The notes under the pieces: model-generated
What the model saw: only the letters and a program-made list of their open reading frames with translations
Told to the model about the DNA's origin: nothing
The model's database searches: none
Program-made: the position numbers and the translations under genes
DNA from: Deltaproteobacteria bacterium
GTDB lineage: Bacteria; Myxococcota; SpSt-1050
DNA length: 64,000 bases
Assembly: GCA_026416535.1 (NCBI GenBank)
Contig: JAOAFA010000087.1
Span: 5,438 to 69,437 of the forward strand
Direction: 5' to 3'
In this document: one piece after another, positions 10,758 through 64,000 of the stretch
Position numbering within the stretch: the stretch's first letter is position 1
Layout: each line of letters opens with the position of its first letter

Positions 10758-10774
10758 AGAAGGTTATTGTTACT

Positions 10775-12022: not shown

Positions 12023-12083
12023 CATTTTTGTTGCATTTTCGCTCTTATGTGTGTATATTCATCTCTAACAAAGGAGGGCAAAG

Positions 12084-12386: not shown

Positions 12387-12409
12387 TTTTTGACGTGGTA
12401 AAGTATTTA

Positions 12410-12440
12410 GCCCACAGGGAATCTGTGGGCTTTTTTATTT
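12410..12440 (+). terminator. Rho-independent terminator after the SWIB gene. It may act in both directions for the convergent gene ending at 12454.
   Basis: An 8-bp perfect stem (gcccacag / ctgtgggc, loop 'ggaat') is followed immediately by TTTTTT. Confidence 0.7.
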
Positions 12441-12453
12441 TAAAATTACTCAG

Positions 12454-37250: not shown

Positions 37251-37958
37251 TTATTCTCTATTGATAAGATGTTGCGTTAATCTATCCAAATTACTTTTTA
37301 TATCTCCCTCTATGAGCGATCTACCGACTACTATAAAATCTGCACCTGACTCAAACGCTGCCAGTGGGCTCTCAACCCTCTTCTGGTCAAGAGCAGGATC
37401 GCCGGGAAGCCTAATCCCTGGAGTAATAATCTTCAATCTGTTGCCCACAAGGGTCTTTACAAACCCAAGGTCTGAGGCTGAACAGACAATTCCATATATA
37501 CCTGTGTCAAGTGCTAGAGCAACCATATCAGTTATAGCCTCTCTAACTCCAGCTCTGAATCCAATGGATTTTACATCATCATCACTTAAACTAGTAAGGA
37601 TGGTTACACCTATGATTCCAGAAGTTGGAAGAATCTCTTTGAGGGTTTTTGTGGCGTCTCGGAGCATCTTCTCTCCACCGCCTACATGAACTGTTAAGAG
37701 GTCGAAACCGTATTTAGCTAGAGACTTTATAGCTGAGGAGACAGTGTTAGGAATATCACAGAGTTTCAGATCTAAAAAGATCTTAAACCCTTGTGCACGT
37801 GCGTATGGGATTATCTGCTCACCATATCCGAAGAAAGACTGCATCCCAATCTTTACGTATTCAAGACGACCTCTTGTTTCATCAATTACGATCTTTGCTT
37901 CCTCAAAGGTTGGCACATCAACAGCCGCAATTACCCTTTTCAGTAATTCCTTATTCAA
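37251..37958 (-). CDS. pyrF: Orotidine-5'-phosphate decarboxylase.
   Basis: 'FKIFLDLKLCDIPNTV' (the DxK…D active-site block). Confidence 0.85.
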   Translation of the reverse strand: MNKELLKRVIAAVDVPTFEEAKIVIDETRGRLEYVKIGMQSFFGYGEQIIPYARAQGFKIFLDLKLCDIPNTVSSAIKSLAKYGFDLLTVHVGGGEKMLRDATKTLKEILPTSGIIGVTILTSLSDDDVKSIGFRAGVREAITDMVALALDTGIYGIVCSASDLGFVKTLVGNRLKIITPGIRLPGDPALDQKRVESPLAAFESGADFIVVGRSLIEGDIKSNLDRLTQHLINRE

Positions 37959-39193
37959 ATCAAGATACCTCCATTTCTGACACCTTCGTATAGTTTCGCA
38001 ATCTCTCTCAAGATATCATCCCTTTCAGACTCAGGTAGTCCATTTTTGACCTCAAATATACAGTAATTCAAAAGATTGGATAGGGAGTGAAGCAGCTCTC
38101 TCTCTGCCATTTCAAAATATAGTTCTTTTGCCTTATTATATAACTCACTAAGGTTACTTATATTGCCATCAATGTCAAATTGACAAAGCGATATAATCTC
38201 ATCTCCGTCGGGTGGCTGGGAGATATATGACTCAATATGGAGGGTACCAAATCTCCCCTTGCCTTCAAGCGCCTTGTATGAGATTTCCAATGCCTTCTTA
38301 ACTTTATTAATATAGTCTCGATACTTATTTGCCTCTTCTGACTTTGTTCCAATGATTTTGACGAAACCCGCTCTATAAAGTGATACAAGAAACCGCATAC
38401 AGTCATATTCGCCAAGTCTGCTCTCCTCTATAATTTGATTCACGGTTCGTCTGGAATCAACAAATGTGAGAATGTATTTCTCCTTTTCTGTAAGTTCTAT
38501 ATCAGGAGAAGGGCTTATCTGTGAAAGTATTGATTCTCCGTCAGAGATTATGCTCCTAAGTCTTGAGAGTTCACCATACTGCCTCATACCTTCCATGATT
38601 AGTTCAAGTGTGCTCTCCGAGAGCTTTACTGCATTGGTTAGATCTGGTTTCTTTTCTTCAAAGACGTAAAACCCGTCCTGATATGAAAACAGACTCAAAA
38701 ATATTGCCTTGACTTGCTGAGTTAGCCCCACATATATATCTCTTGGGGTAACAAGCTTTCTCTCCATCAATATCTCACCAAGTCTTGTTCCACTCTTTAC
38801 CTTATCGGCCACTTCAAGGAGAGTTTCTCTCGAGATTCTACCACTTCTAAAAAGGATATTACCAAGCCTATCCTCTTCAAGTTCCGAGATTGCGTATACA
38901 AGTTCTCCTCCCTGAAAGTAGAGTGCCTTTTTAAAGTTATCTTTTATAAAAGTTAAAACACCGTCTTTTCTGAGGGAATTGATCATGCCGATTATCTCGA
39001 CAAGGCCAAGGACAGATATATCTCCCATGAACATACTTTTCAAAGGTCGCTCTGAAGAATGTAATATGAATGTTTCCTGATTGATCCTTGTAAACTCGGC
39101 CTCACCTTTTTCATTAAAGGTTGAGAACAATTTCGATACACTATCTGGCAATATAATTCTATCTATATTGTCTTTCAAAATCTTAAATCTCAT
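37955..39193 (-). CDS. DUF4388 (PATAN-like) domain protein.
   Basis: 'GDISVLGLVEIIGMINSLRKDGVLTFIKDNFKKALYFQGGELVYA' matches the DUF4388 core (L/F-x-L-x-D-L-L-Q-x…G-x-L-x…G-x-I). Its stop overlaps the pyrF start. Confidence 0.6.
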   Translation of the reverse strand: MRFKILKDNIDRIILPDSVSKLFSTFNEKGEAEFTRINQETFILHSSERPLKSMFMGDISVLGLVEIIGMINSLRKDGVLTFIKDNFKKALYFQGGELVYAISELEEDRLGNILFRSGRISRETLLEVADKVKSGTRLGEILMERKLVTPRDIYVGLTQQVKAIFLSLFSYQDGFYVFEEKKPDLTNAVKLSESTLELIMEGMRQYGELSRLRSIISDGESILSQISPSPDIELTEKEKYILTFVDSRRTVNQIIEESRLGEYDCMRFLVSLYRAGFVKIIGTKSEEANKYRDYINKVKKALEISYKALEGKGRFGTLHIESYISQPPDGDEIISLCQFDIDGNISNLSELYNKAKELYFEMAERELLHSLSNLLNYCIFEVKNGLPESERDDILREIAKLYEGVRNGGILI

Positions 39194-40936
39194 TTATTGT
39201 ACTCCCTCTCCCCCTGAGTAATATTTGTATTCCTCTGAAATAAGTCTCTTGATATCATCTGCAAATCTCTCGAATGGAACTATCTGTGAGGCCTTTTCTC
39301 TTCTAAGCTTTACCTCTACTCCGCCCTTTTCAATTGATTTTTTAGAGACCGAGACCCTTATTGGTATTCCAATCAAATCTGCATCCTTAAAGAGCACCCC
39401 TGGTCTTTCATCTCTGTCATCAAAAAGGACCTCTACATTAAGACTCAAAAGCTTTTTGTACAGTTCTTCTCCGCGCCTCACAACCTCCTCAGAATCAGTG
39501 CCAATGCACATAAGGTGAACCTCAAATGGTGCAATAGGCATAGGCCAGATAATACCATCCTTGTCATGATATTGCTCTATCGCTGCGGCAGCTGTCCTTC
39601 CAATCCCAATCCCATAGCATCCCATTATCATTGGCTTCTTTTGACCGTCTCTATCCAGAAACTCGGCATTCATTCTTGCAGAGTATTTTGTCCCTAGGTA
39701 AAATATCTGTCCTACTTCTATCCCACGGAATCTCTCATATATCCCCTTTCTACACTGAGGGCAAATTTCGCCAGGTTTTGCAAACCTTATATCATAAAAC
39801 CCCTTAATATCCTTTATATCACGTTCCACATTTACACCTTTTAGGTGCGTATCCGCCTTGTTTGCCCCCACAACTGCACCGCTTAACCCTTTTACTGAGT
39901 AGTCAGCAAATATGTCTATGCCAAGGCCTATAGGACCTGCGAATCCCACAGGTGCCTTTGTGATATCTACGATTTCCTTATCATTTGCTAGTCTTAATTC
40001 ATCACATTTAAGTAAGGCCTTTACTTTTGATTCATTTATATCGAAGTCTCCTCTCACGAGAAATGCATAAGGCTTTCCGTCCGCAATGTACAGAATCGTC
40101 TTAATTAGCCTCGAAGGAATTACATCGAGAAACCTACAGACTTCCTCAACTGTTCTCTTGTTGGGTGTTTCTACTTCAGTATATTTATTCGAGGATTCCA
40201 CACTAGGATTTTCGACAAAGTGACAGGCGGCCATTTCCACGTTTGCTGCATAATCACATTGATTACACGCCAGAATCTCATCCTCTCCCGAGTCAGCGAG
40301 TACCTGAAATTCATGGGACAAAGTTCCTCCAATATTCCCTGTTGCTGCCGAGACGGCTCTAAATTTTAGTCCGCATCTCTTGAAAATCCTTACGTAAGTC
40401 TCGTACATATTCCAGTATTCCCGTTTTGCGTCTTCCTCTGTTGTATGAAATGAGTATGCGTCCTTCATAAGGAATTCTCTCCCCCTCATCAACCCGAATC
40501 TTGGTCTGGCCTCATCCCTAAACTTAGTCTGGATCTGATACAAGTTTTTAGGTAAATCCTTATATGATTTGAGCTCTTGCCTTGCTATGTCAGTAATAAT
40601 CTCTTCATGTGTAGGACCGAGACAAAAATCAGCTCCTTTCCTATCCTTAAATCTTAGGAGCTCAGCCCCGTAATAACTCCACCTCCCAGACTCAATCCAG
40701 AGTTCAGCCGGTAGTACCATTGGCATTAGAAGTTCAATTGCACCAGATTTATTCATTTCCTCTCTTATAATTCCCTCAATCTTTCTTATTGTTCTTAACA
40801 GCATTGGCATATAAGTATAGATCCCTGCTGAAAGTTTTTTTATCATGCCTGATCTCACCATGAGTTGATGTGAAACAACCTGGGCATCAGAAGGAATCTC
40901 TTTATAAGTGTGAAACATGTATTTAGATATCCTCAT
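39194..40936 (-). CDS. proS: Prolyl-tRNA synthetase, bacterial type with editing insertion domain.
   Basis: N-terminus 'MFHTYKEIPSDAQVVSHQLMVRSGMIKKL' plus class II motifs. Confidence 0.95.
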   Translation of the reverse strand: MRISKYMFHTYKEIPSDAQVVSHQLMVRSGMIKKLSAGIYTYMPMLLRTIRKIEGIIREEMNKSGAIELLMPMVLPAELWIESGRWSYYGAELLRFKDRKGADFCLGPTHEEIITDIARQELKSYKDLPKNLYQIQTKFRDEARPRFGLMRGREFLMKDAYSFHTTEEDAKREYWNMYETYVRIFKRCGLKFRAVSAATGNIGGTLSHEFQVLADSGEDEILACNQCDYAANVEMAACHFVENPSVESSNKYTEVETPNKRTVEEVCRFLDVIPSRLIKTILYIADGKPYAFLVRGDFDINESKVKALLKCDELRLANDKEIVDITKAPVGFAGPIGLGIDIFADYSVKGLSGAVVGANKADTHLKGVNVERDIKDIKGFYDIRFAKPGEICPQCRKGIYERFRGIEVGQIFYLGTKYSARMNAEFLDRDGQKKPMIMGCYGIGIGRTAAAAIEQYHDKDGIIWPMPIAPFEVHLMCIGTDSEEVVRRGEELYKKLLSLNVEVLFDDRDERPGVLFKDADLIGIPIRVSVSKKSIEKGGVEVKLRREKASQIVPFERFADDIKRLISEEYKYYSGGEGVQ

Positions 40937-51137: not shown

Positions 51138-53135
51138 ATGTATACCATGTATACGAAAAGGATGAGTGTTGTATGTTGTGCCGCTTGCATTTTTACATTT
51201 TTAGTCAATTTATCCGCGCAGGAGTTTGGCGCATTCGGACCTAAAGTCTCATTTTCTGAAAAAACCTCTATGTTTCTTTCAATATATGCAAACAAGGATA
51301 AAGACACGAAAAAGAATGGGTTATACGGTGTGTTCATAGATAGAAGAGGCAATGTCTCACAGCCTTTTCAGATAAGCAAAAATTTTGGGCAAAGCAAGGC
51401 TATCTCTTATCTCAGCTCATCAAACGTGTTTTTATTGGTCTATAGTTATTGTGATTTGGGATGCTTAATAGAAGGACAGATAATCCTACCAGACGGTACC
51501 CTAAAAGGTACTCCTTTTATAATATCTTCGAACAGCTATGGTTTTGGCGAGATCGTGGCAGAGTCTGATGAAAGTAGTAAGAAGTTTCTCATTGTATGGA
51601 AGGACTATAGAAATAGGTCTAATCACCAAGTGTTTGGAAGGCTTATAAATGATGATGGGACCATGCATGGTCCTGAAATACAAATCATAAAAAATGCAAA
51701 TTCAGTCACAGGCTTTGATATTGTCAGAGATAGCATAAACAATAGGTATCTGTTTGTTTATTCAGACGCCGATGTGAATTTATGGAGTATAAACGCACTA
51801 TCTCTAAGGGATAATCTCTCTATTGAGAGGATGAATAAGATAGCTACTTCTAGCGACTTTAATTGTAAAGTTTCAATATCTTTTGATAGTAAGAACAAAT
51901 TGTTCTTTATTGCGTATTCAAATTTTCTCCCCGGGGTTAATTCCTTTAATATAGAGGCATTAGTCTTAGACGAAGATCTAAAGGTTTTATACAATATAGA
52001 TGTCACCACAGGTTCAAACCAGAATAGATTCCCAGATACAGCCTATAATCCTTTCGCAGATGCATTTGTTATTACCTATCATACTAAACGGATAGAAGGG
52101 ACTATCTCGAACATAGCGTTCGCCCTCTATAAAGCTATTGATGGTTCTCTAATAGATACGGGTATAGTAGATAAAACAGGCATGGCTACTCTATTAAACC
52201 CATCTATAGCGGTTAATTCAATTTGTCCAAATGGAGTTATAGTATATGAAAATTACGATGCATCAACATTTACTAACAATTTTGGAGCACATTTCTTGGG
52301 AGAACTCTGTAAATTTCATCTCAGTATATCTAAAAAGGGAGACGGAAGCGGTAAAGTACACTCTGAACCTGCTGGAATAGATTGTGGGGGAATATGCAGT
52401 TACCAATATAAAGATGGCTCTTCGGTAACCTTAATAGCAACTCCTGATGAGAGCTCTACATTTGTGGGTTTTTCTGCTCCACAATGTGGGGATGAAGCTG
52501 TATGTTCGATTAGTATTGATTCTGATAAAAAAATAGATGCGGAGTTTGCCTTAAAAACCTTTCAAATAAAGACCGTGGCTGGAAACGGTGGGCAAATTTT
52601 CCCTGAAAATCCAATTGTTAAGTATGGCTCAGATCAAAAAGTTGATATTATACCCTATGAAGGATATGTAATAGATGAAGTAATAATCGACAATCAGTCC
52701 TATGGTGTAATTGACTCGTATACGTTTACTAATGTAATATCAGATCACACTATATCCGCTACATTCCAGCAGGAGCCCATATATTATGCAATTAATGCAT
52801 CGGCTTCAGAGGGAGGAAATATCAATCCAGCCGGTGAAATTAAGGTAAGATCTGGGGATAGCATAACATTTACTATTACGCCCCTGGAGGGTTATTTCAT
52901 AAACTATGTAGAGGTCGACGGCAATGATGTGGGGGCAATTAATGAATATACTTTCTCAAATGTTGATAATAACCACACAATATATGCCAATTTTAAGAGT
53001 TATCAAAATGAATGGGACTTTGACGGAGGAGTATCCGAGGTGTTAAATGGAAGTGGACAAGCGGATTCAAATGTTATGGTTACAGTTGTAAAAGAAAAAG
53101 AGGGTTCCGGATGCAGTTGTTCGCTAATTGAGTAG
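51138..53135 (+). CDS. Secreted protein with a divergent InlB-B-repeat (Cys-containing) domain followed by two further B-repeat-like domains.
   Basis: 'GDGSGKVHSEPAGIDCGGICSYQYKDGSSVTLIATPDESSTFVGFSAPQCGDEAVCSI' is followed by two ~65-aa repeats ending '…HTISATF' / '…HTIYANF'. The N-terminal ~400 aa are unassigned. Confidence 0.6.
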   Translation: MYTMYTKRMSVVCCAACIFTFLVNLSAQEFGAFGPKVSFSEKTSMFLSIYANKDKDTKKNGLYGVFIDRRGNVSQPFQISKNFGQSKAISYLSSSNVFLLVYSYCDLGCLIEGQIILPDGTLKGTPFIISSNSYGFGEIVAESDESSKKFLIVWKDYRNRSNHQVFGRLINDDGTMHGPEIQIIKNANSVTGFDIVRDSINNRYLFVYSDADVNLWSINALSLRDNLSIERMNKIATSSDFNCKVSISFDSKNKLFFIAYSNFLPGVNSFNIEALVLDEDLKVLYNIDVTTGSNQNRFPDTAYNPFADAFVITYHTKRIEGTISNIAFALYKAIDGSLIDTGIVDKTGMATLLNPSIAVNSICPNGVIVYENYDASTFTNNFGAHFLGELCKFHLSISKKGDGSGKVHSEPAGIDCGGICSYQYKDGSSVTLIATPDESSTFVGFSAPQCGDEAVCSISIDSDKKIDAEFALKTFQIKTVAGNGGQIFPENPIVKYGSDQKVDIIPYEGYVIDEVIIDNQSYGVIDSYTFTNVISDHTISATFQQEPIYYAINASASEGGNINPAGEIKVRSGDSITFTITPLEGYFINYVEVDGNDVGAINEYTFSNVDNNHTIYANFKSYQNEWDFDGGVSEVLNGSGQADSNVMVTVVKEKEGSGCSCSLIE

Positions 53136-53212
53136 ATGGAATTTTATTTCACAAAAGTAATAAAATTTGGTATTATCCAGTTTCGTAAACCTTCTAGATT
53201 AGGGAGGTCAAA

Positions 53213-54256
53213 ATGATCAACAGGTTATTGTTAATTATCTCTTTGTTGATTTTGGTGAACTCAGCTCAGGTGTTGGCATCAGAGATTAAGTCTGAGAGGT
53301 GTGATATTTCATACCTCAAAGGTCTTGCTACTCAAAAAGGCACAAACATTGTTATAAATTTTTATGCATATTGGTGTCCAGCTTGTAGAGAGCTCTATAA
53401 AAAGGTCCTCCCAGCTGAGGGGGTTAAGAATATTCTATCGGAGTATGTATTTGCTAGATGCAACGGAGAAGAGGGAGAGGGAGAAAGACTATTCAATCAA
53501 TACAAAATTACTGCCTTCCCTACACTCTTAATATTAGACCCAAATGGCAAAGAGCTTGATAGAATAGTAGATGACATTGATGAGCAAAAAATAAAAAAGA
53601 CATTAGAACAAATAAAAATGGGGAAGAGCGAAGTAGATGAGCTTGCAAAAAAGGCGGATACAAATCCAAAGGATACAGAGCTTTTATTTAATGTATGTAT
53701 GTCTTATATATTTAGGGCTGATAGAGATAAGGCAAAAAAGTATTGTGAAAAGGTCCTCAAAATTGATCAGAAAAATGAAAAGGGGTATGCCTCTCAAGTA
53801 CTATTATCTCTTGGAAAGTATCTCTATTTTAGAGGATTAAAGGATTATGACCTTGCAGCTGCACATTTAGAACAGGTCCTCAAGCTCTTCCCGGAGTCAA
53901 AAGAGGCAAGGTCGGCTTTCATATTCCTCATCTCCTCATATGTCAGAGGAGGAAAAGAAGGTGTGGCAGTCATGAAATTAAGAGAATTGATAAAGAAGAA
54001 CCCCAATTCGAAAGAGCCTTACAAGACATTCGCATATATTAGCTGGAAAAACAAATGGCGCATAGACCAAGGTATTGAGAATGCAAGAAAGGCAACAGAT
54101 CTTGACCCTTCCGACGATGACGCATGGGATCTCTTAGCAGAACTATATTTTTTAAAAGGGAATAAGGCAGATGCCATTAAGGCCATTGATGAGGCATTAA
54201 AACTGAAACCCTCAGAGGATTACTATAAGGAGCAGAAGGAAAGGTTCTCTAAATAA
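53213..54256 (+). CDS. Secreted thioredoxin-fold protein (CxxC) fused to TPR repeats.
   Basis: 'NFYAYWCPACREL' thioredoxin active site, and a C-terminal half with TPR-like helices. Confidence 0.7.
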   Translation: MINRLLLIISLLILVNSAQVLASEIKSERCDISYLKGLATQKGTNIVINFYAYWCPACRELYKKVLPAEGVKNILSEYVFARCNGEEGEGERLFNQYKITAFPTLLILDPNGKELDRIVDDIDEQKIKKTLEQIKMGKSEVDELAKKADTNPKDTELLFNVCMSYIFRADRDKAKKYCEKVLKIDQKNEKGYASQVLLSLGKYLYFRGLKDYDLAAAHLEQVLKLFPESKEARSAFIFLISSYVRGGKEGVAVMKLRELIKKNPNSKEPYKTFAYISWKNKWRIDQGIENARKATDLDPSDDDAWDLLAELYFLKGNKADAIKAIDEALKLKPSEDYYKEQKERFSK

Positions 54257-54527
54257 ACTAACTTACGGATTTGTATGCCCTCACATCCGATGAATTACAT
54301 AGTGAAGTCTCTCATTTGGAATAGACCCCACTTTATTTATTCCCTCTTCTCTTCAAACACGTATGTTATTCCTAAGGAATCTATTAATTTATATGTTTGC
54401 TCTTGTCGTGTTTTTTCAATGCCCTCATATATATAATAGTAATCTACCAAGGTAATACAATTAGTTAGTTGCATTTTTAGGGTTTTTGTGTTAGTAGATT
54501 CGAACTTTTATTTTATGGAGGATAGTT

Positions 54528-54872
54528 ATGAAGTTATCACCACTTGCGAGAGTTAAGAAGGAATTCGGTTCAAAGGACAAGCTTGTGTCTGAGATTGTAT
54601 CTCTGTTGAAATCACTTAATGCACCATTACCAGATGATATTGAAAAGAGGCTTAAGGCTCAAACTAATCAGAAACTGATAAAACTTTATAATAATGCAAA
54701 GAAGATAAGCGAGATCGGGAAGGATAAGGTAGTAGAGGTAATATTGAAGGCTAAAAGGCCGACCAGTAAAAAGGTTGATGTAGACTACAAAAAGTCATTA
54801 CTTAGTTATCCGATTTCTAAGCTTTATGATATGTATGTTTCAGCAACTAAGTCATTAAAGGGTTTAAAATAA
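54528..54872 (+). CDS. Hypothetical small basic protein.
   Basis: GGAGG ribosome-binding site; Lys-rich; no known motif. Confidence 0.4.
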   Translation: MKLSPLARVKKEFGSKDKLVSEIVSLLKSLNAPLPDDIEKRLKAQTNQKLIKLYNNAKKISEIGKDKVVEVILKAKRPTSKKVDVDYKKSLLSYPISKLYDMYVSATKSLKGLK

Positions 54873-54976
54873 TTTTATAAATTTCACAAGGGCATCTCTT
54901 AGATTCATCGTAAAAATATTGACTTTATTAGATAGTTGGAATATTAGTATTTTTAATTTTTATATAAGAGGTTTTT

Positions 54977-57325
54977 GTGAGAAAACCTATCCCATATGGC
55001 AAATATTTCTTAATAGACCGCATCAATGTAGGCGGTATGGCAGAGGTGTTTAAGGCTAAAGCCTACGGAGTTGAGGGCTTTGAGAAATTGGTTGCCATCA
55101 AGAGGATCCTGCCAAATATTGCTGAAGACGAAGAGTTTATCACAATGTTTATTGATGAGGCTAAGATAGCTGTACAATTGAATCACGCAAATATTGCCCA
55201 AATATTTGATCTTGGTAAGATAGAGGATACCTATTTTATTGCACTGGAGTTTGTATATGGCAAGGATCTGAGAGCGATCTTTGAGAGACTTAGAAAAAGA
55301 GGGGAAATTATGCCAATCCCTGCTGCCTGTTATATAATAATTCAGGTGTGTGAGGGGTTGGATTATGCACACCGTAAAAAGGACTCTATGGGGCGCGACT
55401 TGAATATTGTCCATAGAGATGTGAGTCCTCAGAACATACTTGTATCTTATGAAGGGGATGTTAAAGTAATAGATTTTGGTATTGCTAAGGCAGCCAATAA
55501 GGCCTCGAAGACTCAGGCAGGAATCTTAAAAGGAAAATTCGGTTATATGTCGCCTGAGCAGGTGAGGGGATTGCCCCTTGACAGGAGGTCAGACATTTTT
55601 TCATTGGGTATTATATTTTATGAAATCCTGACGGGGGAGAGATTGTTTGTAGGCGAGAGTGATTTCTCAACACTAGAGAAGGTTCGTAATGTTGAGATTA
55701 TGCCTCCAACAGCTTATAATCGCAATATTCCTGAGTCATTAGAAAAGATAATCTTGAAGGCCCTTGCTAAGGATGCAGATGATAGATACCAGTTTGCATC
55801 TGAGATGGCAGAGGATATACAGAGATTTATGATCTCTCAAGGTATACTGTTCACCAGAAAAGATCTTAGTAATTTTATGAAGACACTCTTTGCAGATGAT
55901 ATTGCGAGGGATAGTGCTCAACAGGAGGAATCTAAAAAGCAAGTCTCGTCACTTCCTCAGACAGTTCAACCAGTGAAGGAGGTTAAAAAGCCTATTTCGA
56001 GGCCCTCAAATCCTGTTCCGCCACCTGTGCCGGGTGAACTGGACAATGTTAAGACTGTTGTCTTTGGAGGAGAGCAAAAACCAATATCACCGCCGCCTCT
56101 TGGGAATGAGATCGGGTTAAAGGCTGAAGATGAGGAGCCGATAGAACTCGCAACAGAAGAAAGTACTAAGCCTGTTGTAAAAGCTCCTCCTAAAATGCAG
56201 TCCCCAATTGCTAAACCCAAGGTGACATCTGAAATAAAAAAACCACAGACTGCAGAGGTTAAACAACAGAGGAGTTTTAATAAGTTAATAGTTTTTTCTG
56301 CTGGGGCTGTGGCTATATTGTTTTTGCTAGTGGTTGTTATCAAGTATTTTTCTAAAGCCGATAAGGAAATTGGAGAGAGTAGCATAGAGATTTTCTATAC
56401 GCCGCCAGACTCTGAAATTTATATAGATGGTATAAAAGTGGGTTCTTCATCTCCTTATAAAAATCCGAAAATTAGTGCAGGTAAACATACTATTGAGATA
56501 AAGAGGAAAGGTTTTATTCCTATTAAGGAGGAGGTTTTTCTTAAAAGTAATCAAAAATTTTCGAATAACTATATTTTGAAGGCGGAGAAGGAGGTGTTTG
56601 GGACAGTAGAGATTGAGACGATTCCGCCAGGTGCGGTAGTTACAATTGACGGTCAAATTAAATCTGGGACTACTCCAATGAATGTTAAGGTTCTTGCTCT
56701 CGTAGACCATAAAATTTTGATTGAAAAGTCGGGATATAAGAGTATAGAGGAGACCTTTACTGTTGATGAAGGTAAGACGATTAAACTGAGTTATGAACTA
56801 AAGCCACCAACTGCAAAATTGATAATAAATTCCACTCCAAAAGGTGCGACCGTATTTATAAATAAGAAAAGGGTGGGTGTAACGCCGTTTACTTCTCAAG
56901 AGATAAAGGTGGGGGAAAAGCTTGATATCGAAATATCGAAGCCCCCATTTGCTCCTGTGAAAAGAACGATTACAATCGAGAAGGAGGGAGAACTTACAAT
57001 TGATGAAGAGCTTAAGAGACAGGAAGGTTCTTCAGAGAAGGTAGAGAAAGCCAGTCCTCTTAAGGAAGAGATTAAGGCGGCAAAAAAGGAGGAAAAGGCA
57101 GCAGTAAGTGGGAATGGATATATTGCGGTTTCAGCATATCCATGGGCGTATTTATTTATAGATGGCAAGGAGCTTGGGATTGCTTCACCTGCCTTAAAGA
57201 GGCACGAGGTCAAGGCAGGTCCACATACTGTGACTTTGAGAAGAAGTGATGGTAAAGAGGCTGTTCATAAAGTGAATGTAAGACCTAATGAAGAAGTGCA
57301 GATAAAAGAGAAATTTGATAAGTAA
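54977..57325 (+). CDS. Hanks-type Ser/Thr protein kinase with a Pro-rich linker, one TM helix and C-terminal PEGA repeats. GTG start.
   Basis: Kinase subdomains 'GGMAEVFKAKA…VAIKRI', 'HRDVSPQNILV', 'DFGIAKA' and 'GYMSPEQ'. A TM helix (IVFSAGAVAILFLLVVVI) is followed by at least three PEGA-like units. Confidence 0.85.
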   Translation: MRKPIPYGKYFLIDRINVGGMAEVFKAKAYGVEGFEKLVAIKRILPNIAEDEEFITMFIDEAKIAVQLNHANIAQIFDLGKIEDTYFIALEFVYGKDLRAIFERLRKRGEIMPIPAACYIIIQVCEGLDYAHRKKDSMGRDLNIVHRDVSPQNILVSYEGDVKVIDFGIAKAANKASKTQAGILKGKFGYMSPEQVRGLPLDRRSDIFSLGIIFYEILTGERLFVGESDFSTLEKVRNVEIMPPTAYNRNIPESLEKIILKALAKDADDRYQFASEMAEDIQRFMISQGILFTRKDLSNFMKTLFADDIARDSAQQEESKKQVSSLPQTVQPVKEVKKPISRPSNPVPPPVPGELDNVKTVVFGGEQKPISPPPLGNEIGLKAEDEEPIELATEESTKPVVKAPPKMQSPIAKPKVTSEIKKPQTAEVKQQRSFNKLIVFSAGAVAILFLLVVVIKYFSKADKEIGESSIEIFYTPPDSEIYIDGIKVGSSSPYKNPKISAGKHTIEIKRKGFIPIKEEVFLKSNQKFSNNYILKAEKEVFGTVEIETIPPGAVVTIDGQIKSGTTPMNVKVLALVDHKILIEKSGYKSIEETFTVDEGKTIKLSYELKPPTAKLIINSTPKGATVFINKKRVGVTPFTSQEIKVGEKLDIEISKPPFAPVKRTITIEKEGELTIDEELKRQEGSSEKVEKASPLKEEIKAAKKEEKAAVSGNGYIAVSAYPWAYLFIDGKELGIASPALKRHEVKAGPHTVTLRRSDGKEAVHKVNVRPNEEVQIKEKFDK

Positions 57326-57387
57326 GTGGATCTCATTTTGGTCATATTTGTTTTATTCTCCTAATGTGAAGAAGAGAGGTTAAACAA

Positions 57388-57591
57388 ATGATAAATAGAT
57401 TCAATGATAATTTGATTTTGATTAAAAATTTGTGTGAGACACTTGTTATTGTTGCAAAAAGGGCGTTTGAGGATGCAAATGATGATAGTTGTAAGGCTAT
57501 TTATTATGACATGCTAAAGGATATTTCCTCATATATTAAGGAGATTGAATCTGAGATAGAAAGCCACAAAAGCAAAGGAAAATGGGAATAA
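57388..57591 (+). CDS. Small hypothetical protein (67 aa).
   Basis: GAGAGG ribosome-binding site; helical; lies between the kinase and dapF. Confidence 0.35.
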   Translation: MINRFNDNLILIKNLCETLVIVAKRAFEDANDDSCKAIYYDMLKDISSYIKEIESEIESHKSKGKWE

Positions 57592-57595
57592 GGAC

Positions 57596-58438
57596 ATGAG
57601 CAAATTCTCTAAAGCTTATAAATATCAAGGTACGGGGAATGATTTTGTTCTTTTTGATTCAATAAGAAGTGAGGCTTTAATTACTCCTAAAGAGGCAATC
57701 TTTTTGTGCAATAGACATTTTGGTGTAGGAGCAGATGGTGTTCTTACCTTATTACCATCTAAAAAGGCGGACTTCTTTATGCACATTTATAATGCAGATG
57801 GCTCAGTTGCTGAGATGTGTGGAAATGGGATTAGATGTGCTGTGAAACATTTTGTTGACTTCTATTTGGGGAGGGGACAAAGGAGAACTATAATCGTGGA
57901 GACTAAAAAGGGGGTCCACACTTGTGAATATTCTGTTGATGATAAAGGAGTCAAGACAGTTATCGTAAATATGGGTGCGCCTATGTTAGAACCACAGAAG
58001 ATACCAATAAAAGCAGAAAGAAATACATTGACTATAAAGAAAGGCAATAGAATTGTAAGAGGGATGGCTTTATCTATGGGGAACCCGCACTTTGTGAGTT
58101 TTGGTGATTTTAATTCAGAAGATGTATATGTATTGGGACCCTTTATTGAGAGACATTCATTGTTTCCACGATTTACAAATGTAGAGCTTGCAAATGTAAA
58201 AGATAAACGAAATGCAGAGGTGTTTGTTTGGGAGAGAGGGGTAGGGGTAACTTTGGCTTGCGGTTCGGGTGCATGCGCCGTAGTTGTGGCGGGTGTAAAA
58301 CAGGGACTCTTAGATGGAGATGTGTTTGTAAAGGTAAGATTGATGGGAGGGGTTCTTAAAATAAAATATGATACGAAGTCGAATGAGGTGATTATGGAAG
58401 GAGAGGTAAAGAGAGTTTTTGGGATCGAATTTCAATGA
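57596..58438 (+). CDS. dapF: Diaminopimelate epimerase.
   Basis: 'YQGTGNDFVLFD' and 'CGNGIRC' / 'GSGACA' catalytic cysteine blocks. Confidence 0.9.
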   Translation: MSKFSKAYKYQGTGNDFVLFDSIRSEALITPKEAIFLCNRHFGVGADGVLTLLPSKKADFFMHIYNADGSVAEMCGNGIRCAVKHFVDFYLGRGQRRTIIVETKKGVHTCEYSVDDKGVKTVIVNMGAPMLEPQKIPIKAERNTLTIKKGNRIVRGMALSMGNPHFVSFGDFNSEDVYVLGPFIERHSLFPRFTNVELANVKDKRNAEVFVWERGVGVTLACGSGACAVVVAGVKQGLLDGDVFVKVRLMGGVLKIKYDTKSNEVIMEGEVKRVFGIEFQ

Positions 58439-60390
58439 TTGAGAGAATAGAAAATATCCTGGTTTGTGATGATGATGAATTGTTTAGGAGAAGGACATCC
58501 GATCTTCTTCAAAGATATGGCTACTTTGTCCTTGAGGCATCAAGCGGACTTGATGCAAAGGATAAGTTGATCAGGAATAAAATAGACCTTGCTATTATCG
58601 ATATTATATTGCCTGATTATGATGGAGCTGAATTGGCCATTGAGGTGAGGGAGAAATATCCTGATGTTGCAATTGTTGTGATTACCCAAAGAAATGAGGC
58701 TACACTGGCAGTCAATCTTTTGAAAAAAGGGATAGATGAATATATAGTTAAGCCGATTGGGGATGAGGAATTGCTGAATGTTATTGAGTTAATATACAAA
58801 AAGAGGGTAGAAAATGAAGAGAAGAGTAAACTATTGGTGAATAGCTCGAATTATAATCTTCAGCTGATCTATGATCGAATTATAAGGCTTTTAACATTTA
58901 TTGAGTTGGATAAACTCTATGAAGCAATAGTGGAGACCTTAGTTTCAGTCTTGAGGGTTCAAGGGGCAATATTGTGGGTACCAGATAAAAAAGATAAGAG
59001 CTTTTTTAGGATTGAGTCCTATAGGGGACTGGTTCAGACAGAATCTTTTCCGTTTACTTTTAGTTTAAAAGAACATCCCCTTCAAAGTCTTTTCTACACA
59101 AGTAAGTATATTGAGGATTCTGAATTATCAAATGGCGAGGGGGCTGTCATAGGTGAAATTATAGATAAAAAACGGAATTTAATTCTTCCTTTGGTGTACT
59201 ATAAAGAATTGTATGGTGTTGTAAAGCTTGTTGAAAAGATATCTGGTGAGTTTACAGAAAGTGACATTCGCATTGCCTCTTTGATCGCCGAATTTTCAGC
59301 GATAGCGATAAGAAATTGTAAGTATTTTGAATTTGCTTCGTATTCATTACTTAGGGAGAAGGATTCACATCTATACTCTATGGCATATTTTATAGACTAT
59401 GCAGGTAAAGAGATTTATAGGGCAAGGAGATATAAAAGGCCGTTCTCGGTGGTGGAGATAGTTATAGATAACGCCGAGTATTTTAAATTGAATATGAACA
59501 AAGACATGTATGAGAATTTGTCAAAATGGCTGGTTGGGAATATATCTACTGGACTTAGGTCCTCAGATGTAATATCAAGGGTGTCAGAAAGTGAATTTCT
59601 CCTCGTGATGCCAGATACTGATTATATGGGGGCTTTAGCATATATCAGTAGATCTCTAAATAATTTTAGATCCGAACAATTTGTTAATTTTTTAGATAAA
59701 TATGTTCCTCTCTCTGTCTCTATGGGAGCCGCGTCATTTCCAGCTCATGGAAGTGATTATGACAGCTTGATATATACGTGCTCTGGGAAGATAAAATCTA
59801 TTAGAGAGTCAGTATATAGGAGACACCATTTAGAAGATATGGGATTTTATCAGATAATTGATTACCTTGTGGGATCTTATGAGGATTATGTAAGCTATTT
59901 TAGTGAAAATAAAGATAAGACCTCTATTATGTTTCTATCTCTTGAACAGTCTTCTGATCAAAATGCACATATGTTTCTAAGCCATAAGGAGTTGGACTAT
60001 CATATTGGGGAGGTTACTAATTTTGTGCGATCTATTACAAATGATGGGATTTGGTTGCTCTTTATTGGTAGGTCTCCTTCTGCAGTATCAAGTCTCCTTT
60101 CTGGTCTGGTCGGTTATAAGAATCCTAATGCAAAGATGTTTGTAGTTAGCATTATGGATAAAGAAGGGTTTAAGTTTAAGAATATTTCTCTTGTAAGCCA
60201 GAGCACTGATTTATGGCAGAAATATACTGTATTTTTGGTTTTATCAGCAGCGGGTTCCTATGGGATGATGTTTAAGAACGAATTTGATAGGTATTATGGT
60301 TTTTCGACTAACGATGAATACTTGATTTTTGAGCTTATTACTAAATTTGTAAGTTCGAATGGATTACACTTGAAGGAGATGTCAAGTTGA
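58435..60390 (+). CDS. Response regulator with a receiver domain, a GAF-like domain and a degenerate GGDEF domain.
   Basis: Canonical receiver (VCDDDE…AIIDIILPD…VVIT…YIVKP), then a GAF-like middle. The C-terminal GGDEF-like fold has 'SESEF' in place of GG(D/E)EF. Confidence 0.7.
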   Translation: MIERIENILVCDDDELFRRRTSDLLQRYGYFVLEASSGLDAKDKLIRNKIDLAIIDIILPDYDGAELAIEVREKYPDVAIVVITQRNEATLAVNLLKKGIDEYIVKPIGDEELLNVIELIYKKRVENEEKSKLLVNSSNYNLQLIYDRIIRLLTFIELDKLYEAIVETLVSVLRVQGAILWVPDKKDKSFFRIESYRGLVQTESFPFTFSLKEHPLQSLFYTSKYIEDSELSNGEGAVIGEIIDKKRNLILPLVYYKELYGVVKLVEKISGEFTESDIRIASLIAEFSAIAIRNCKYFEFASYSLLREKDSHLYSMAYFIDYAGKEIYRARRYKRPFSVVEIVIDNAEYFKLNMNKDMYENLSKWLVGNISTGLRSSDVISRVSESEFLLVMPDTDYMGALAYISRSLNNFRSEQFVNFLDKYVPLSVSMGAASFPAHGSDYDSLIYTCSGKIKSIRESVYRRHHLEDMGFYQIIDYLVGSYEDYVSYFSENKDKTSIMFLSLEQSSDQNAHMFLSHKELDYHIGEVTNFVRSITNDGIWLLFIGRSPSAVSSLLSGLVGYKNPNAKMFVVSIMDKEGFKFKNISLVSQSTDLWQKYTVFLVLSAAGSYGMMFKNEFDRYYGFSTNDEYLIFELITKFVSSNGLHLKEMSS

Positions 60391-61955
60391 GTGATAAGCC
60401 TCCGAGATTGATACTCGTAGCAGATAGAGATAAGGATTCGGCTGCGCAGCTTGGAGAGGCTCTTAAAAAGAGAGGCTATGGGGTTGTCTATACTTATGAT
60501 GGTTCTAATTCCATAGAGGTTGTAATAACCCATCTGCCTGATCTTGTATTTTATGATGCAGCACTTCCTTTGATTCATTTTAAAAAGTTTATTCAGATTG
60601 TTAGATCGAATCCTCGCACGATGCATATTCCTATAATTATAGTTGGCAGAGCGACGGATAAGATAGGATTTTCTACTCTTACAGAGAGTAAGATTAATAA
60701 ACCTTACGATATAAACTCAATTATGAAGATGGTCGAGAATATCTTTCATAAAATAGATACAGCGGATATGCTTAAGTCTTCAACTAAAGCGTTTGAGGGG
60801 AAGCTCTCTGAGATATCGTTGCCTGATTTGATGCAGGTATTTGCATTAAATAAGAAGACAGGTGTTTTAAAGATCAAAAATAGAAATCATGATGCAAGCA
60901 TATATCTCAGAAACGGAGAGATAATTCATGCTCAGACTGGAAAAATCTTTGGTGAAAAGGCTATATATAGACTCTTAGGGATATCGGAGGGTGATTTTAT
61001 TTTTCAGCCTGATGTTGTCAGTGATCAGATCTCACTTAGAAGCACAATTGACAATATCCTAATGGAAGGAATGAGACAGTTAGATGAGTCTAAGAAGATA
61101 ATAGCAGAGCACTTTAGTGGTAATGATTTATATGTAAGAGATGAAATAAAGATTAGAGAACTTTCTGGACTTCATCCCATCGCTGAAGATGTCATCAGTG
61201 AGCTTAAGGATCCAAAATGTCTTGATGAAATTTTGGATTCCCTTCATTATCCGGACCTTGAAATTCTTACAACCTTGAGATCTCTTATTGTCTCCGGGGC
61301 CATAAAGGTTGTTAGTCTAAGTGATGTGAGTGAGATTATTCAAAGGATACCTTCTAAGAGCACAGGTATATTGAATGAAGAGGAATGGAGAGCCCTTTCT
61401 TATTATTTGAATGAGAATTTTTTTAAGAGGTATTCTATATCTACAACTGTTGTAGGCATAGTTTGTCCTAATCGTGTGCTTTTAAAGAAATTTATTCGTG
61501 TTTTAAAAACGTTGAGTGAGATTGAATTATATGATTATAATTTTGTAATCCAATTTGGTTATGGGAGATTGGGACATATTAGGGGTATTAATATAGACAT
61601 AGATATCTATCTTGTGCCTATTAATAAACAATTTTTCCCTTTTAGAAGGTTGTTGGATGTTAGGATGATAGGTCTTTTATTGATTACCTCATCGGCTGCT
61701 CAAAACATAGTAGTTAATGCCGTTATAGATTCAAAAGGCACAAATTATCTCAATTATATGCCAGTTTTGAATGTAGTTGTGCCTATGGATGACGTTGTTG
61801 GGGTAAAGGATTTGACATTTGTAGATGCCTCATTGGAGATAGGAGAAAATAAGGAACCACCAACAAGATATGATATCTCTAAACCAGAAGAATTTGTTTT
61901 ACTTGTCAGGCGGTTTATTAGTAGTATAATTAAGAAATCAGTTTTAGGGTGTTAA
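60387..61955 (+). CDS. Receiver-like domain plus DUF4388-domain protein. TTG start overlaps the upstream stop.
   Basis: 'RLILVADRDKD…DLVFYDAALP…' receiver-like N-terminus, followed by 'LSEISLPDLMQVFALNKKTGVLKIKNRNHDASIYLRNGEIIHA' (DUF4388 core). Confidence 0.65.
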   Translation: MSDKPPRLILVADRDKDSAAQLGEALKKRGYGVVYTYDGSNSIEVVITHLPDLVFYDAALPLIHFKKFIQIVRSNPRTMHIPIIIVGRATDKIGFSTLTESKINKPYDINSIMKMVENIFHKIDTADMLKSSTKAFEGKLSEISLPDLMQVFALNKKTGVLKIKNRNHDASIYLRNGEIIHAQTGKIFGEKAIYRLLGISEGDFIFQPDVVSDQISLRSTIDNILMEGMRQLDESKKIIAEHFSGNDLYVRDEIKIRELSGLHPIAEDVISELKDPKCLDEILDSLHYPDLEILTTLRSLIVSGAIKVVSLSDVSEIIQRIPSKSTGILNEEEWRALSYYLNENFFKRYSISTTVVGIVCPNRVLLKKFIRVLKTLSEIELYDYNFVIQFGYGRLGHIRGINIDIDIYLVPINKQFFPFRRLLDVRMIGLLLITSSAAQNIVVNAVIDSKGTNYLNYMPVLNVVVPMDDVVGVKDLTFVDASLEIGENKEPPTRYDISKPEEFVLLVRRFISSIIKKSVLGC

Positions 61956-61956
61956 A

Positions 61957-63858
61957 ATGAAAATTTCTTATCTATTTGTTTTACTACTATTGTGTTTGAC
62001 ATTAGATGCTCAGCAGATTGTAGTAACTACCTTGACAGAAGAGTTTAGTGGCAAGTTGTTTTTATATGATGACAAAGAAGATGCCTTAAATGGTCTTAAG
62101 TCTAATTTGTCTGATAGATTGATGAAGAGACTTAAAAAGATGGGTTATTCCGATGATTATATAATTACGTTATTAAAAAAGGTAAAATATTCTGATCTCA
62201 ATGTGGTTGAAAAAAGAGTTGAGATGTTAAAAGATAATAAAAGAGTAAAGACCATAGCCTTTGATTTATCTGGATATGCGAGTATAACAATTGATGAAAA
62301 TGATGTGGTAGAGCTTGCTGAGGCCCTTAAGAGGTTCTCCCCTATAAGTGAGGATGAAAAGATTCAATATAGAGAGGCATTGAGGAATTTTTTAAGCCTT
62401 TCAGAAAGGGTAAGAGGATTGGATGTTTCTATCTTAAAACTTAAACTATCAGAAATAATAAAGTCAGATATCCTTAAACAAATCCAGACAGTTTTTAGTT
62501 CTGATAATATGTCTTTTCAGGTGTTGCATGGGAGGATAGTTGATATCATAAACAATATAGAAACAAATAAAAGATACCTAGGAGAGAATGAAAATTTGAA
62601 AGAGGTTACTAAGCATCTTTTTACTAACATTGAATTCTATTACAAAAGATCTTTAATAGATGTTACAAATTATGAAAGTGCGATAAATTTAGCAAACGAC
62701 ATATCAAGGATGATACCTGATAAGGATGAAGAGATATTAAAGACGTTAATGTTTATTGTTGAGTTTAAGTGGGCCGAAAATATTCAGAACATTGCGTCAA
62801 GTAACAATGTAGAGATAGCAAGATTATTTAGGGAGGTTGATGGCTTTCTTAAAAATTTCTCAACTTCAAAATTTATTAGAAATGTAAGAAACAAACTCAT
62901 TACAAGATTGCGGGGAGAGATGCAAGATGAGCAGTTGATGTATGATTCATTTCAATATATTCTGTTGATATTTGATAGGCTTGGACTCAAAGAGATTAGT
63001 TCCGATATCATGAAGAAGTGTGAATCTGTAATGAGTAGTGTGGAGAGTGCATCAGATGAGGTCTCATCTAAGATTGAAGAATCCTTTAACATATGTATGA
63101 AATATTCTGATCCAATTACAAAAAAGCGGATTAACTCTCTAAAGGAGAAATTTTTAAAGTCTGATAGGAATAGGATGTATAAAAGCATGTTGGGTAATCT
63201 TGCCTTTTTGATGAGATTTGTAAAATATGTTGATTCGATTCCTTTTGGAGTAGAGAAGGAAAAGATTAGCTCGAATAAGTTTAGTGATTTTTTAAATGAA
63301 GGATCTTTTACTTCCGGGTGTTCATGCATGGATGAGCAGAAACAAGAAGACTGTGTTGTATTTGTTTATGGAGGAGACCAATTTGAGTTAGTCCTCAGGT
63401 TCCATGGGCATAGTCTTTATGAGATAGAGGTATGTAATATGAATTTGAAGGGTAGAAGCTCTGTATTGCTATCCTATTTAAAAGAAAACTTTAAACCTTT
63501 ATTTAAGGTCTCAGACATAGAAGAGAAAGATGGGACGTTTGATTTTGAGGTAAAAAAGGATTTAATTCTCTCTGTTGAAAAAGTTGGATTTTTTGGAAGT
63601 GTTTTAGTATATGATAAAAGATATAGACCAAAGATCCAGTCTAAAATCTCTTATTCATCTCCTCAATCGGATAATATCTTAAAGACAGGAGATTGTGTAG
63701 AATGGGAGTGTGAATTTGAGTGTAAATATAGGGGGAAGGTCGAAAAGATTATTGCTGAGGATGTTCAGGTTATTGTTACATTAGCCTCAAAGGCCTCTGA
63801 GCTTAATATGAGAAAGCGCCTTAAGAAGAATTCGGTTAGAAGGTGTCAATCATTTTAG
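61957..63858 (+). CDS. Hypothetical secreted protein (633 aa).
   Basis: Signal peptide; mostly helical; no recognisable domain. Its start is 2 bp after the previous stop. Confidence 0.5.
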   Translation: MKISYLFVLLLLCLTLDAQQIVVTTLTEEFSGKLFLYDDKEDALNGLKSNLSDRLMKRLKKMGYSDDYIITLLKKVKYSDLNVVEKRVEMLKDNKRVKTIAFDLSGYASITIDENDVVELAEALKRFSPISEDEKIQYREALRNFLSLSERVRGLDVSILKLKLSEIIKSDILKQIQTVFSSDNMSFQVLHGRIVDIINNIETNKRYLGENENLKEVTKHLFTNIEFYYKRSLIDVTNYESAINLANDISRMIPDKDEEILKTLMFIVEFKWAENIQNIASSNNVEIARLFREVDGFLKNFSTSKFIRNVRNKLITRLRGEMQDEQLMYDSFQYILLIFDRLGLKEISSDIMKKCESVMSSVESASDEVSSKIEESFNICMKYSDPITKKRINSLKEKFLKSDRNRMYKSMLGNLAFLMRFVKYVDSIPFGVEKEKISSNKFSDFLNEGSFTSGCSCMDEQKQEDCVVFVYGGDQFELVLRFHGHSLYEIEVCNMNLKGRSSVLLSYLKENFKPLFKVSDIEEKDGTFDFEVKKDLILSVEKVGFFGSVLVYDKRYRPKIQSKISYSSPQSDNILKTGDCVEWECEFECKYRGKVEKIIAEDVQVIVTLASKASELNMRKRLKKNSVRRCQSF

Positions 63859-63870
63859 GGGTTATACTAT

Positions 63871-64000
63871 ATGGGTTTTGTGTTGGGGCTTGTTTGTCCT
63901 AAATGTAGATTTCTTAATAAATGGGAGGAGAGGATTTGTGTGAGATGTATGGCTCCACTTAGAGATAGTGGGGTTGAGGCAATAAAAGAGGTTCAGTTGT
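63871..64000 (+). CDS. N-terminal fragment of a zinc-ribbon-containing protein; continues beyond the window.
   Basis: 'CPKCRFLNKWEERICVRC', two CxxC pairs. Confidence 0.35.
   Translation, partial: MGFVLGLVCPKCRFLNKWEERICVRCMAPLRDSGVEAIKEVQL

Follow-up and report, generated by a model that had tools for sequence, protein, structure and literature searches.

We have analyzed a window of 64,000 nucleotides (nt) of contig JAOAFA010000087.1, which belongs to an uncultured member of the Myxococcota ('Deltaproteobacteria') with a low G+C content of about 36%. The window contains dapF, the gene of diaminopimelate epimerase, followed by the genes of two response regulators, a REC-GAF-dead-GGDEF protein that we call RGG and a REC-PATAN(DUF4388) protein that we call the PATAN protein. 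Comparison with relatives shows that these three genes (the triad) are an ancient three-gene operon of Myxococcota. As to their role, we hold with slightly more confidence than doubt that RGG and the PATAN protein are an orphan pair of regulators that would act by protein contacts and not by DNA binding, and that their link to dapF is one of co-expression.

Conservation of the triad in Myxococcota

One genome per species was scanned for relatives, which gave 80 loci (labelled L003, L004, etc.) in which the six proteins of the window were placed by tblastn and the open reading frames (ORFs) were extracted. Gene order was counted only in Myxococcota-type loci with sufficient flanking DNA, over 65 species for the first junction and 61 for the second. 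In 56/65 species dapF was the gene immediately before RGG, with a median gap of 6 nt and 50 of 53 gaps not longer than 45 nt. The PATAN gene was downstream of RGG in all 61 species (within 100 nt in 59 and with one inserted gene in the other 2), the median gap being 12 nt. Overlaps of 4 nt or 1 nt were frequent at both junctions among the relatives. The species carrying the triad include Myxococcus, Corallococcus, Pyxidicoccus, Archangium, Cystobacter, Vitiosangium, Anaeromyxobacter and several deep-branching lineages of metagenome-assembled genomes (MAGs). In dozens of them the proteins are just 25-45% identical to those of the window, and the recurrence of gene order and close spacing at this level of identity puts the arrangement far beyond chance. 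The original prediction, made from the letters of the window, had named conservation of the dapF-regulator linkage in relatives as a check, and the linkage has indeed been kept. The same order of DAP_epimerase, REC-GAF-GGDEF and REC-PatA_N products also appeared in independent gene calls of Anaeromyxobacter and of three contigs from MAGs or metagenomes; RGG homologues in Anaeromyxobacter and in metagenomes had 28-33% identity.

Nine species had the RGG-PATAN pair and no dapF directly upstream (L006, L024, L025, L027, L028, L030, L037, L072 and L073). Five of these (L024, L025, L027, L028 and L030) form a subgroup with an Anaeromyxobacter-like RGG in which the pair is kept; in L025 the region upstream of RGG has an ORF with a receiver domain and an M20 peptidase gene on the opposite strand. 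The sole interruptions of the pair that we saw were in two deep-branching relatives, L003 (11225-11938) and L008, where a gene of about 237 codons is located between RGG and PATAN; its product in L003 had a weak match to outer-membrane-protein beta-barrels. Two apparent RGG-PATAN fusions (L035 and L043) were rejected as artefacts of frameshifted long-read assemblies, stop codons being present. More distant REC-GAF-GGDEF proteins were found in Gemmatimonadota, with about 490 residues and without the C-terminal domain; neither dapF nor a PATAN gene was detected beside their genes in the loci from the scan. The alignment-based homologue search added no further distant orthologues of the PATAN protein.

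The other genes of the cluster have a much narrower distribution. An adjacent orthologue of the kinase gene that precedes the triad in the window was found only in L004 and L005 (80-83% identity), and so was the ORF of 67 codons just before dapF, at the same position (64-66% identity, E 4e-28 and 6e-18). The gene of 633 codons that follows PATAN had kept its place in L004 and L005 and also in L006 (24% identity). Since these three genes are limited to the close clade, dapF-RGG-PATAN is the core and the remainder is lineage-specific.

RGG, a receiver protein with a degenerate GGDEF domain

RGG had Pfam matches to REC (E 4.6e-24), GAF_2 (E 3.7e-07, or 1.8e-08 on the isolated segment) and GGDEF (E 8.1e-08; 32.6 bits against a threshold of 23.8). 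The receiver residues D12, D13, D56, T84 and K106 were invariant in an alignment of 16 homologues and the full set was kept in approximately 54/62 RGG orthologues. Judging from these residues the receiver is canonical and can probably be phosphorylated.

The GGDEF domain, in turn, had lost its active-site motif. This region reads RSSDVISRVSESEF in the window, with SESEF at the position of GG[DE]EF, and the position was degenerate in 62/62 aligned orthologues, following the pattern [S/A/T/N][E/D]xE[F/Y/M]. The original prediction had already described the domain of the window as degenerate, and the alignment extends this to all the orthologues aligned. At the same time, the RxxD of the I-site, which binds cyclic di-GMP (c-di-GMP), was present as R375-S-S-D378, followed by five residues and then by SESEF, a spacing like that of canonical cyclases; counting the motif variants among the aligned orthologues, RxxD was kept in 61/62. 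In canonical cyclases GTP is bound by the motif DxFKxxNDxxGH, and the stretch at this position in RGG reads DNAEYFKLNMNKD. With SESEF in place of GG[DE]EF RGG should be unable to make c-di-GMP, and the retained I-site makes binding of it probable. RGG is thus most likely a receptor of c-di-GMP and not a cyclase. Automatic annotations would have it otherwise, as an active diguanylate cyclase switched on by phosphorylation, like PleD or DgcR: the GGDEF match is above the Pfam threshold, databases name these proteins 'diguanylate cyclase' or 'cell cycle response regulator' and there is a weak, sub-threshold likeness to the DgcR, PleD and DgcA models. Nevertheless, the scores with every NCBIfam cyclase model were far under the cut-offs (74 vs 500 and 68 vs 474) and, together with the degenerate motif of the whole family and the changed GTP-binding stretch, they make an active cyclase highly improbable.

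The last 190 residues of RGG had no family match in Pfam. Their AlphaFold2 model (built, like that of the PATAN protein described below, on few sequences, 11 in one case and 25 in the other) had a pLDDT (predicted local distance difference test) of 87.4 and a predicted template-modelling (TM) score of 0.86. When it was compared to the PDB with Foldseek, the matches were NucT (6ehi, E 1.6e-04), FAM83/BJ-TSA-9 (4urj), PPK1, Zucchini and phospholipase D (PLD), with E values from 1.6e-04 to 1e-01, best-chain probabilities of 0.97-1.00 and TM scores of 0.35-0.49. In the alignment of homologues the HKD motif, HxK(x)4D, was absent from this domain. The sole conserved histidine was in F-H-T-x-D, without the lysine, and is a serine in the clade of the window (GFSTND in the window itself). 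We read the domain, on the strength of the model, as a putative PLD-like pseudo-enzyme serving as an output or interaction module. Sequence-profile searches of the PDB with the C-terminal domains of RGG and of the PATAN protein gave nothing significant (best E 0.19 for one domain and 0.084 for the other). We also considered RGG as a relative of YigA (DUF484) of Escherichia coli, which would have implied an ancient dapF-GAF linkage, and rejected it: hhalign gave an E of 0.086 and a probability of 0.7%, and the GAF segment had no DUF484 match.

The PATAN protein

In the second regulator the receiver is atypical in its residues. It scored 31.8 bits with Pfam REC, just over the cut-off of 30.2 (E 1.8e-07); D57 and K105-P106 were conserved, the acidic pocket was D-x-D, and the Thr/Ser position was occupied by Gly. 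The DUF4388 match (PF14332) was much clearer, with 88.2 bits and an E of 5.6e-25. Outside of the receiver no solved structure matched the protein by sequence. No DNA-binding family was matched in either this protein or RGG (Pfam and NCBIfam), consistent with the output independent of DNA binding that had been proposed originally for the two regulators.

The AlphaFold2 model of residues 240-522 (pLDDT 76.7) contains a small helical, winged-helix-like unit and then an alpha/beta domain whose strands and helices follow each other as in G domains. Foldseek matched this C-terminus to GTPases of the Arf family (probability 0.93-0.99, E 2e-03 to 1e-02, target TM about 0.33-0.45) and gave also poorly superposed matches to MccB. 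Neither the P-loop GxxxxGK[ST] nor NKxD was found in the sequence of the window or in a consensus of 40 sequences. Comparison by hhalign with MglA and H-Ras was not significant, the alignment to MglA falling in the expected register of beta2, beta3 and switch II. A pseudo-GTPase with a small-GTPase-like fold is accordingly a moderately supported prediction for this domain, given the missing motifs and the non-significant MglA and Ras profiles. As far as the searched literature shows, the phylum-wide triad operon, the PLD-like domain of RGG and the G-domain-like end of the PATAN protein are new.

The window has a second PATAN/DUF4388 gene (37955-39193, - strand), coding for 412 residues with no receiver (PF14332, E 2.1e-21). 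It is located between proS (prolyl-tRNA synthetase; 39194-40936, -), with a gap of 0 nt, and pyrF (OMP decarboxylase; 37251-37958, -), with an overlap of 4 nt; a SpoU methylase gene follows. This is a further case of translational coupling between a PATAN gene and housekeeping genes.

Organization of the operon in the window

The triad is part of a run of genes on the same strand extending from 54977 to 64000 (Table 1), in which the ORF listing and translation recovered, in their places, all the genes described in the original prediction. The junctions are tight. The stop codon of dapF and the ATG of RGG overlap in ATGA, and the stop codon of RGG and the TTG start of the PATAN gene overlap in TTGA, with the Shine-Dalgarno sequence GAAGGAGA located 8 nt upstream of the TTG; both overlaps had been noticed originally. 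A single nucleotide separates the PATAN gene from the ORF of 633 codons. With these overlaps and the 1-nt spacer, the compact, coupled unit first proposed holds as a tightly packed and probably co-translated one. Actually, the unit is longer than described before. The conserved 67-codon ORF, which begins 62 nt after the kinase gene and stops 4 nt short of the dapF start, had been overlooked, and so had a zinc-ribbon/FHA gene that begins 12 nt past the 633-codon ORF, into which the unit continues beyond the end of the window.

Table 1. Features of the dapF-RGG-PATAN cluster and its flanking genes in the window.
Feature	Position	Strand	Basis
Membrane Ser/Thr kinase, 782 residues	54977..57325	+	Pfam Pkinase and PEGA
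Small ORF, 67 residues, without family match	57388..57591	+	ORF listing; kept in L004 and L005
dapF, diaminopimelate epimerase, 280 residues	57596..58438	+	PF01678, TIGR00652
RGG, 651 residues	58435..60390	+	Pfam matches, junction, family alignment
RGG receiver domain, residues 8-117	58456..58785	+	REC E 4.6e-24, phospho-acceptor residues
RGG GAF domain, residues 157-292	58903..59310	+	GAF_2 E 3.7e-07
RGG GGDEF-like domain, residues 312-447	59368..59775	+	GGDEF E 8.1e-08
RGG RxxD I-site, R375-D378	59557-59568	+	Alignment
RGG degenerate active-site motif SESEF, residues 384-388	59584-59598	+	Alignment
RGG C-terminal domain, residues 462-651, predicted PLD-superfamily fold	59818..60387	+	AlphaFold2, Foldseek
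PATAN protein, 522 residues, TTG start	60387..61955	+	DUF4388 E 5.6e-25, REC E 1.8e-07
Atypical REC of the PATAN protein, residues 9-116	60411-60734	+	Pfam, 31.8 bits
PATAN/DUF4388 domain, residues 137-236	60795-61094	+	PF14332, 88.2 bits vs cut-off 25
C-terminus of the PATAN protein, about 170 residues, putative pseudo-GTPase	61446..61952	+	AlphaFold2, Foldseek
Exported protein (predicted), 633 residues	61957..63858	+	Signal-peptide-like N-terminus, relatives
Predicted signal peptide of the 633-residue protein, residues 1-18	61957-62010	+	N-terminal sequence
Zinc-ribbon protein with two FHA domains, start only	63871..64000	+	Homology to L004:9577-10338

No terminator-like site was detected between the genes of the operon in a scan of 53000-64000, the sole match being inside the PATAN gene. 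The same region had 39 promoter-like sites, with 38.7 expected from shuffling, so that the scan as a whole is uninformative either way. The whole window had no Rfam match at the gathering score, and neither a lysine riboswitch nor any other RNA element was found; a match to mir-87 upstream of dapF (E 0.36) was discarded as chance.

The dapF product matched DAP_epimerase (PF01678) in two stretches (E 2.9e-50) and TIGR00652 with 246 bits, over an equivalog cut-off of 114.65. Its translation reads MCGNGIRC and LACGSGACA, with CGNG and CGSG, which we take to be the two catalytic-cysteine motifs of DapF. By these matches it is an ordinary diaminopimelate epimerase.

The kinase and the downstream genes

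Pfam matches to Pkinase (E 5.9e-40) and to PEGA in four stretches (E 2.8e-43), together with the translated sequence, describe an N-terminal Hanks kinase domain, a proline-rich linker, a single transmembrane segment (LIVFSAGAVAILFLLVVVIKYF, located between the kinase domain and the PEGA part) and four extracytoplasmic PEGA domains; a Hanks kinase with extracytoplasmic PEGA domains had been predicted. The kinase motifs VAIKRI, HRD, DFG and SPE are present. However, the catalytic loop, normally HRDxKxxN in Hanks kinases, is HRDVSPQN here, with a serine at the usual position of the lysine. The 67-residue product matched nothing in Pfam or NCBIfam and has no signal peptide or lipobox. Just upstream of dapF in E. 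coli lies lptM, also of 67 codons; given that the ORF of the window lacks signal peptide and lipobox, we take the equal length as a coincidence.

The 633-residue protein starts with a signal-peptide-like sequence, MKISYLFVLLLLCLTLDA|QQ, and had no family in Pfam or NCBIfam. Its own family is tiny, with 16 relatives among 1.84 billion representatives, which share signal-peptide or lipoprotein N-termini and a common cysteine-rich C-terminus; the contigs of one relative were too short to reveal its neighbours. It is therefore a fair reading that the protein is secreted or exported, as had been anticipated. The translation of the next gene, MGFVLGLVCPKCRFLNKWEERICVRC..., matched the N-terminus of the product of L004:9577-10338, in which FHA was found in two stretches (E 3.2e-20). 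In L006, too, the homologue of the 633-codon gene is followed by an FHA gene; in L003 and L008 FHA genes are immediate neighbours of PATAN, and in L037 one is located about 1.2 kb downstream of it. In L004, the gene downstream of the FHA gene (10615-12486, +) codes for an extremely cysteine-rich protein of 623 residues with a hydrophobic, cysteine-containing N-terminus and no Pfam match. In L006 a protein with a Cas6 domain (14440-15408, +; PF10040, E 1.6e-15) is coded just past the FHA gene.

The original prediction had seen in this arrangement the sensing of the envelope or of peptidoglycan. This part is unproven: it rests on the kinase and the secreted protein, which go with the triad only in the close clade of the window (L004 and L005, plus L006 for the latter), and as far as we know PEGA has not been established as a binder of peptidoglycan. 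Besides, the aspartates of receivers are not an expected substrate of Hanks kinases. As FHA genes recur beside the RGG-PATAN pair, the sole plausible link with the kinase would be an indirect one, through the reading of phospho-threonine. In the lineage of the window this could even be the main input, a substrate of the kinase being read by the zinc-ribbon/FHA protein and passed to the PATAN protein, with the receivers secondary or degenerate. In the window, L004 and L005 the operon has the kinase gene on one side and the FHA gene on the other, FHA genes are found at the L006, L003, L008 and L037 loci, a PP2C phosphatase is coded nearby in L003, and FHA is fused to PATAN in many proteins of Myxococcota (P0058-P0070). 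On the other hand, kinase and FHA genes are absent from the locus in most species, including all the Myxococcus, Archangium and Anaeromyxobacter loci. A kinase gene was found within 8 kb in just about 8/70 loci, near what chance would give with the usual numbers of kinases in Myxococcota. Furthermore, the RGG receiver is fully canonical, and the serine in the catalytic loop of the kinase also speaks against this input. We consider phospho-threonine as the main input possible although doubtful, and it would be compatible with an orphan regulator pair, not exclusive of it.

Some 20-25 kb upstream of the operon the window codes for a stand-alone EAL protein (31676-32449, +; E 1.5e-46), a GAF protein (34604-35737, -) and a TPR protein (32958-34100, -). 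The EAL protein indicates that the genome has enzymes of c-di-GMP turnover.

Comparison with known systems

Degenerate GGDEF domains acting as c-di-GMP receptors are found in PopA, PelD and SgmT, and PelD has a GAF and a degenerate GGDEF domain together. A similar case is CdgA (Bd3125) of Bdellovibrio bacteriovorus, in which GVNEF and RxxD are combined; it binds c-di-GMP (Kd about 2 uM) and works by protein contacts at a cell pole, where it shares a hub with RomR and a TPR protein resembling SgmX (PMC3271064, PMC3983030). RGG resembles the CdgA-type receptors in the catalytically dead GGDEF and in the RxxD five residues before the motif position. It differs from them in having a canonical receiver and a PLD-like C-terminal domain added, and its binding of c-di-GMP is a prediction.

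The PATAN domain is sufficient as output domain of PatA-type regulators in cyanobacteria, where it binds PilB1 and PilC (PMC11181946), and PatA, the founding member, binds divisome proteins (PMC7380572). Like PatA, PixG, PixE and LsiR, the PATAN protein of the window combines PF14332 with a receiver and has no DNA-binding domain. Unlike them, it has the domains in reverse order (REC first), an atypical receiver and about 285 extra residues, the winged-helix-like and G-domain-like parts; and its gene is behind dapF and not in a chemotaxis-like operon. Two other PATAN proteins of Myxococcus xanthus co-occur with SgmX and are unstudied (PMC11580455).

In E. coli, dapF and yigA share 4 nt, and xerC and yigB come next, with a further overlap of 1 nt, so that there, as in the window, dapF is coupled to functionally unrelated genes and preceded by a small one. 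However, the downstream genes of E. coli are unrelated to RGG or PATAN, as seen with YigA. Finally, the ends of the two regulators have the same predicted folds as the DUF1669 of FAM83 and as small-GTPase-like pseudo-GTPases, in all of which the catalytic or nucleotide-binding motifs are gone. This likeness is at the level of fold only (6-14% identity), and no function can be transferred from it.

Function of the regulator pair and its link to dapF

The data show the anatomy of the genes, their conservation, the state of the motifs and the predicted folds; that RGG binds c-di-GMP, that the two regulators are partners, what they act on and why they lie beside dapF we infer as follows. RGG would be phosphorylated on its canonical receiver and would bind c-di-GMP at the I-site without making it, integrating both signals and passing them on through the PLD-like pseudo-enzyme domain. 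The PATAN protein would be its partner and would dock on a membrane-associated machine; such a target is probable since in cyanobacteria PATAN docks to the type IV pilus motor or the divisome. Co-transcription with dapF and translational coupling to a housekeeping transcript linked to growth would tie the production of both regulators to that of DapF, and in the clade of the window the kinase and the FHA protein may add a phospho-threonine input. The dapF-yigA overlap of E. coli and the second PATAN gene of the window, inserted between proS and pyrF, favour hitch-hiking as the nature of the dapF link.

Several observations weigh against this proposal. The structural match of the RGG end to PLD proteins has a TM of merely 0.35-0.49, and support for the pseudo-GTPase is moderate (TM about 0.4), with non-significant sequence-profile comparisons. 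The phylum-wide linkage to dapF is stronger than pure hitch-hiking predicts. In M. xanthus DapF is MXAN_5054 (PMC11980068), and MXAN_5053, of 617 codons, appears in lists both of GGDEF-domain proteins and of response regulators (PMC4686200, PMC4671073). The RGG orthologues beside dapF in Myxococcus have 616 residues, and we take MXAN_5053, by position and length, as the RGG orthologue; MXAN_5052 is presumably the third gene of the locus, and this PATAN partner is not mentioned in the literature searched. The in-frame deletion of MXAN_5053 was outside the three mutants with motility defects and the four with developmental defects (PMC4686200, PMC4877007, PMC11980068), and the mutant grew normally (PMC4686200). 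This speaks against a major role in the control of pili or gliding, at least for this gene alone and under laboratory conditions. The two systems also differ: window RGG and Myxococcus protein have about 29% identity, the host of the window has 36% G+C, and the Myxococcus loci (L040, L042, L045 and L066, DK1622 being assumed alike) have no kinase gene, 67-codon ORF, 633-codon gene or FHA gene.

The strength of the conservation of the triad keeps alive a functional link with the cell wall. The pair could couple the supply of meso-diaminopimelate or wall precursors, or wall growth and division, to an output controlled by c-di-GMP and phosphorylation: a wall precursor could be sensed by the GAF or the PLD-like domain, or the PATAN protein could act on the divisome. 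This is the nearest defensible form of the sensing idea in the original prediction. The linkage persists in 56/65 species over a divergence that leaves 25-45% protein identity, and the stop codon of one gene often overlaps the start of the next. PatA interacts with divisome proteins (PMC7380572), and in the clade of the window the operon gains a kinase facing the envelope and an exported protein. In M. xanthus, moreover, a burst of c-di-GMP takes place at cytokinesis whose effectors are still to be identified (PMC11255338). Against it, the nine species that keep RGG-PATAN with no dapF directly upstream indicate that the dapF link is dispensable, translational coupling of dapF to unrelated genes is also seen in E. 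coli, ligand binding by the pair is a prediction, the M. xanthus mutant grew normally (PMC4686200), and the kinase and exported protein do not accompany the triad outside the clade of the window. We find a functional linkage of this kind rather unlikely, and co-expression of an orphan regulator pair with dapF remains our preferred explanation.

Significance

Myxococcota have many orphan response regulators, and several of their GGDEF-domain proteins have been deleted without phenotype. The null phenotype of the MXAN_5053 deletion and a function that is only predicted temper what can be concluded here. A far-reaching version of the wall link, which we judge improbable, would make the triad a phylum-wide device tying wall precursor synthesis to the c-di-GMP-controlled positioning of envelope machines at division. 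If this were true, RGG would be a missing effector of the c-di-GMP burst at cytokinesis of M. xanthus, the PATAN/pseudo-GTPase protein would be an adaptor marking new poles or the divisome, and co-translation with dapF would match the pair to wall growth. Whatever its output, the RGG-PATAN pair is among the most conserved gene arrangements of the phylum, is attached to a gene of the peptidoglycan/lysine pathway and carries two predicted, previously unannotated pseudo-enzyme-like output domains. RGG is a concrete candidate for an unassigned c-di-GMP effector (PMC11255338), and the triad gives a first handle on the role of the PATAN domain outside cyanobacteria.

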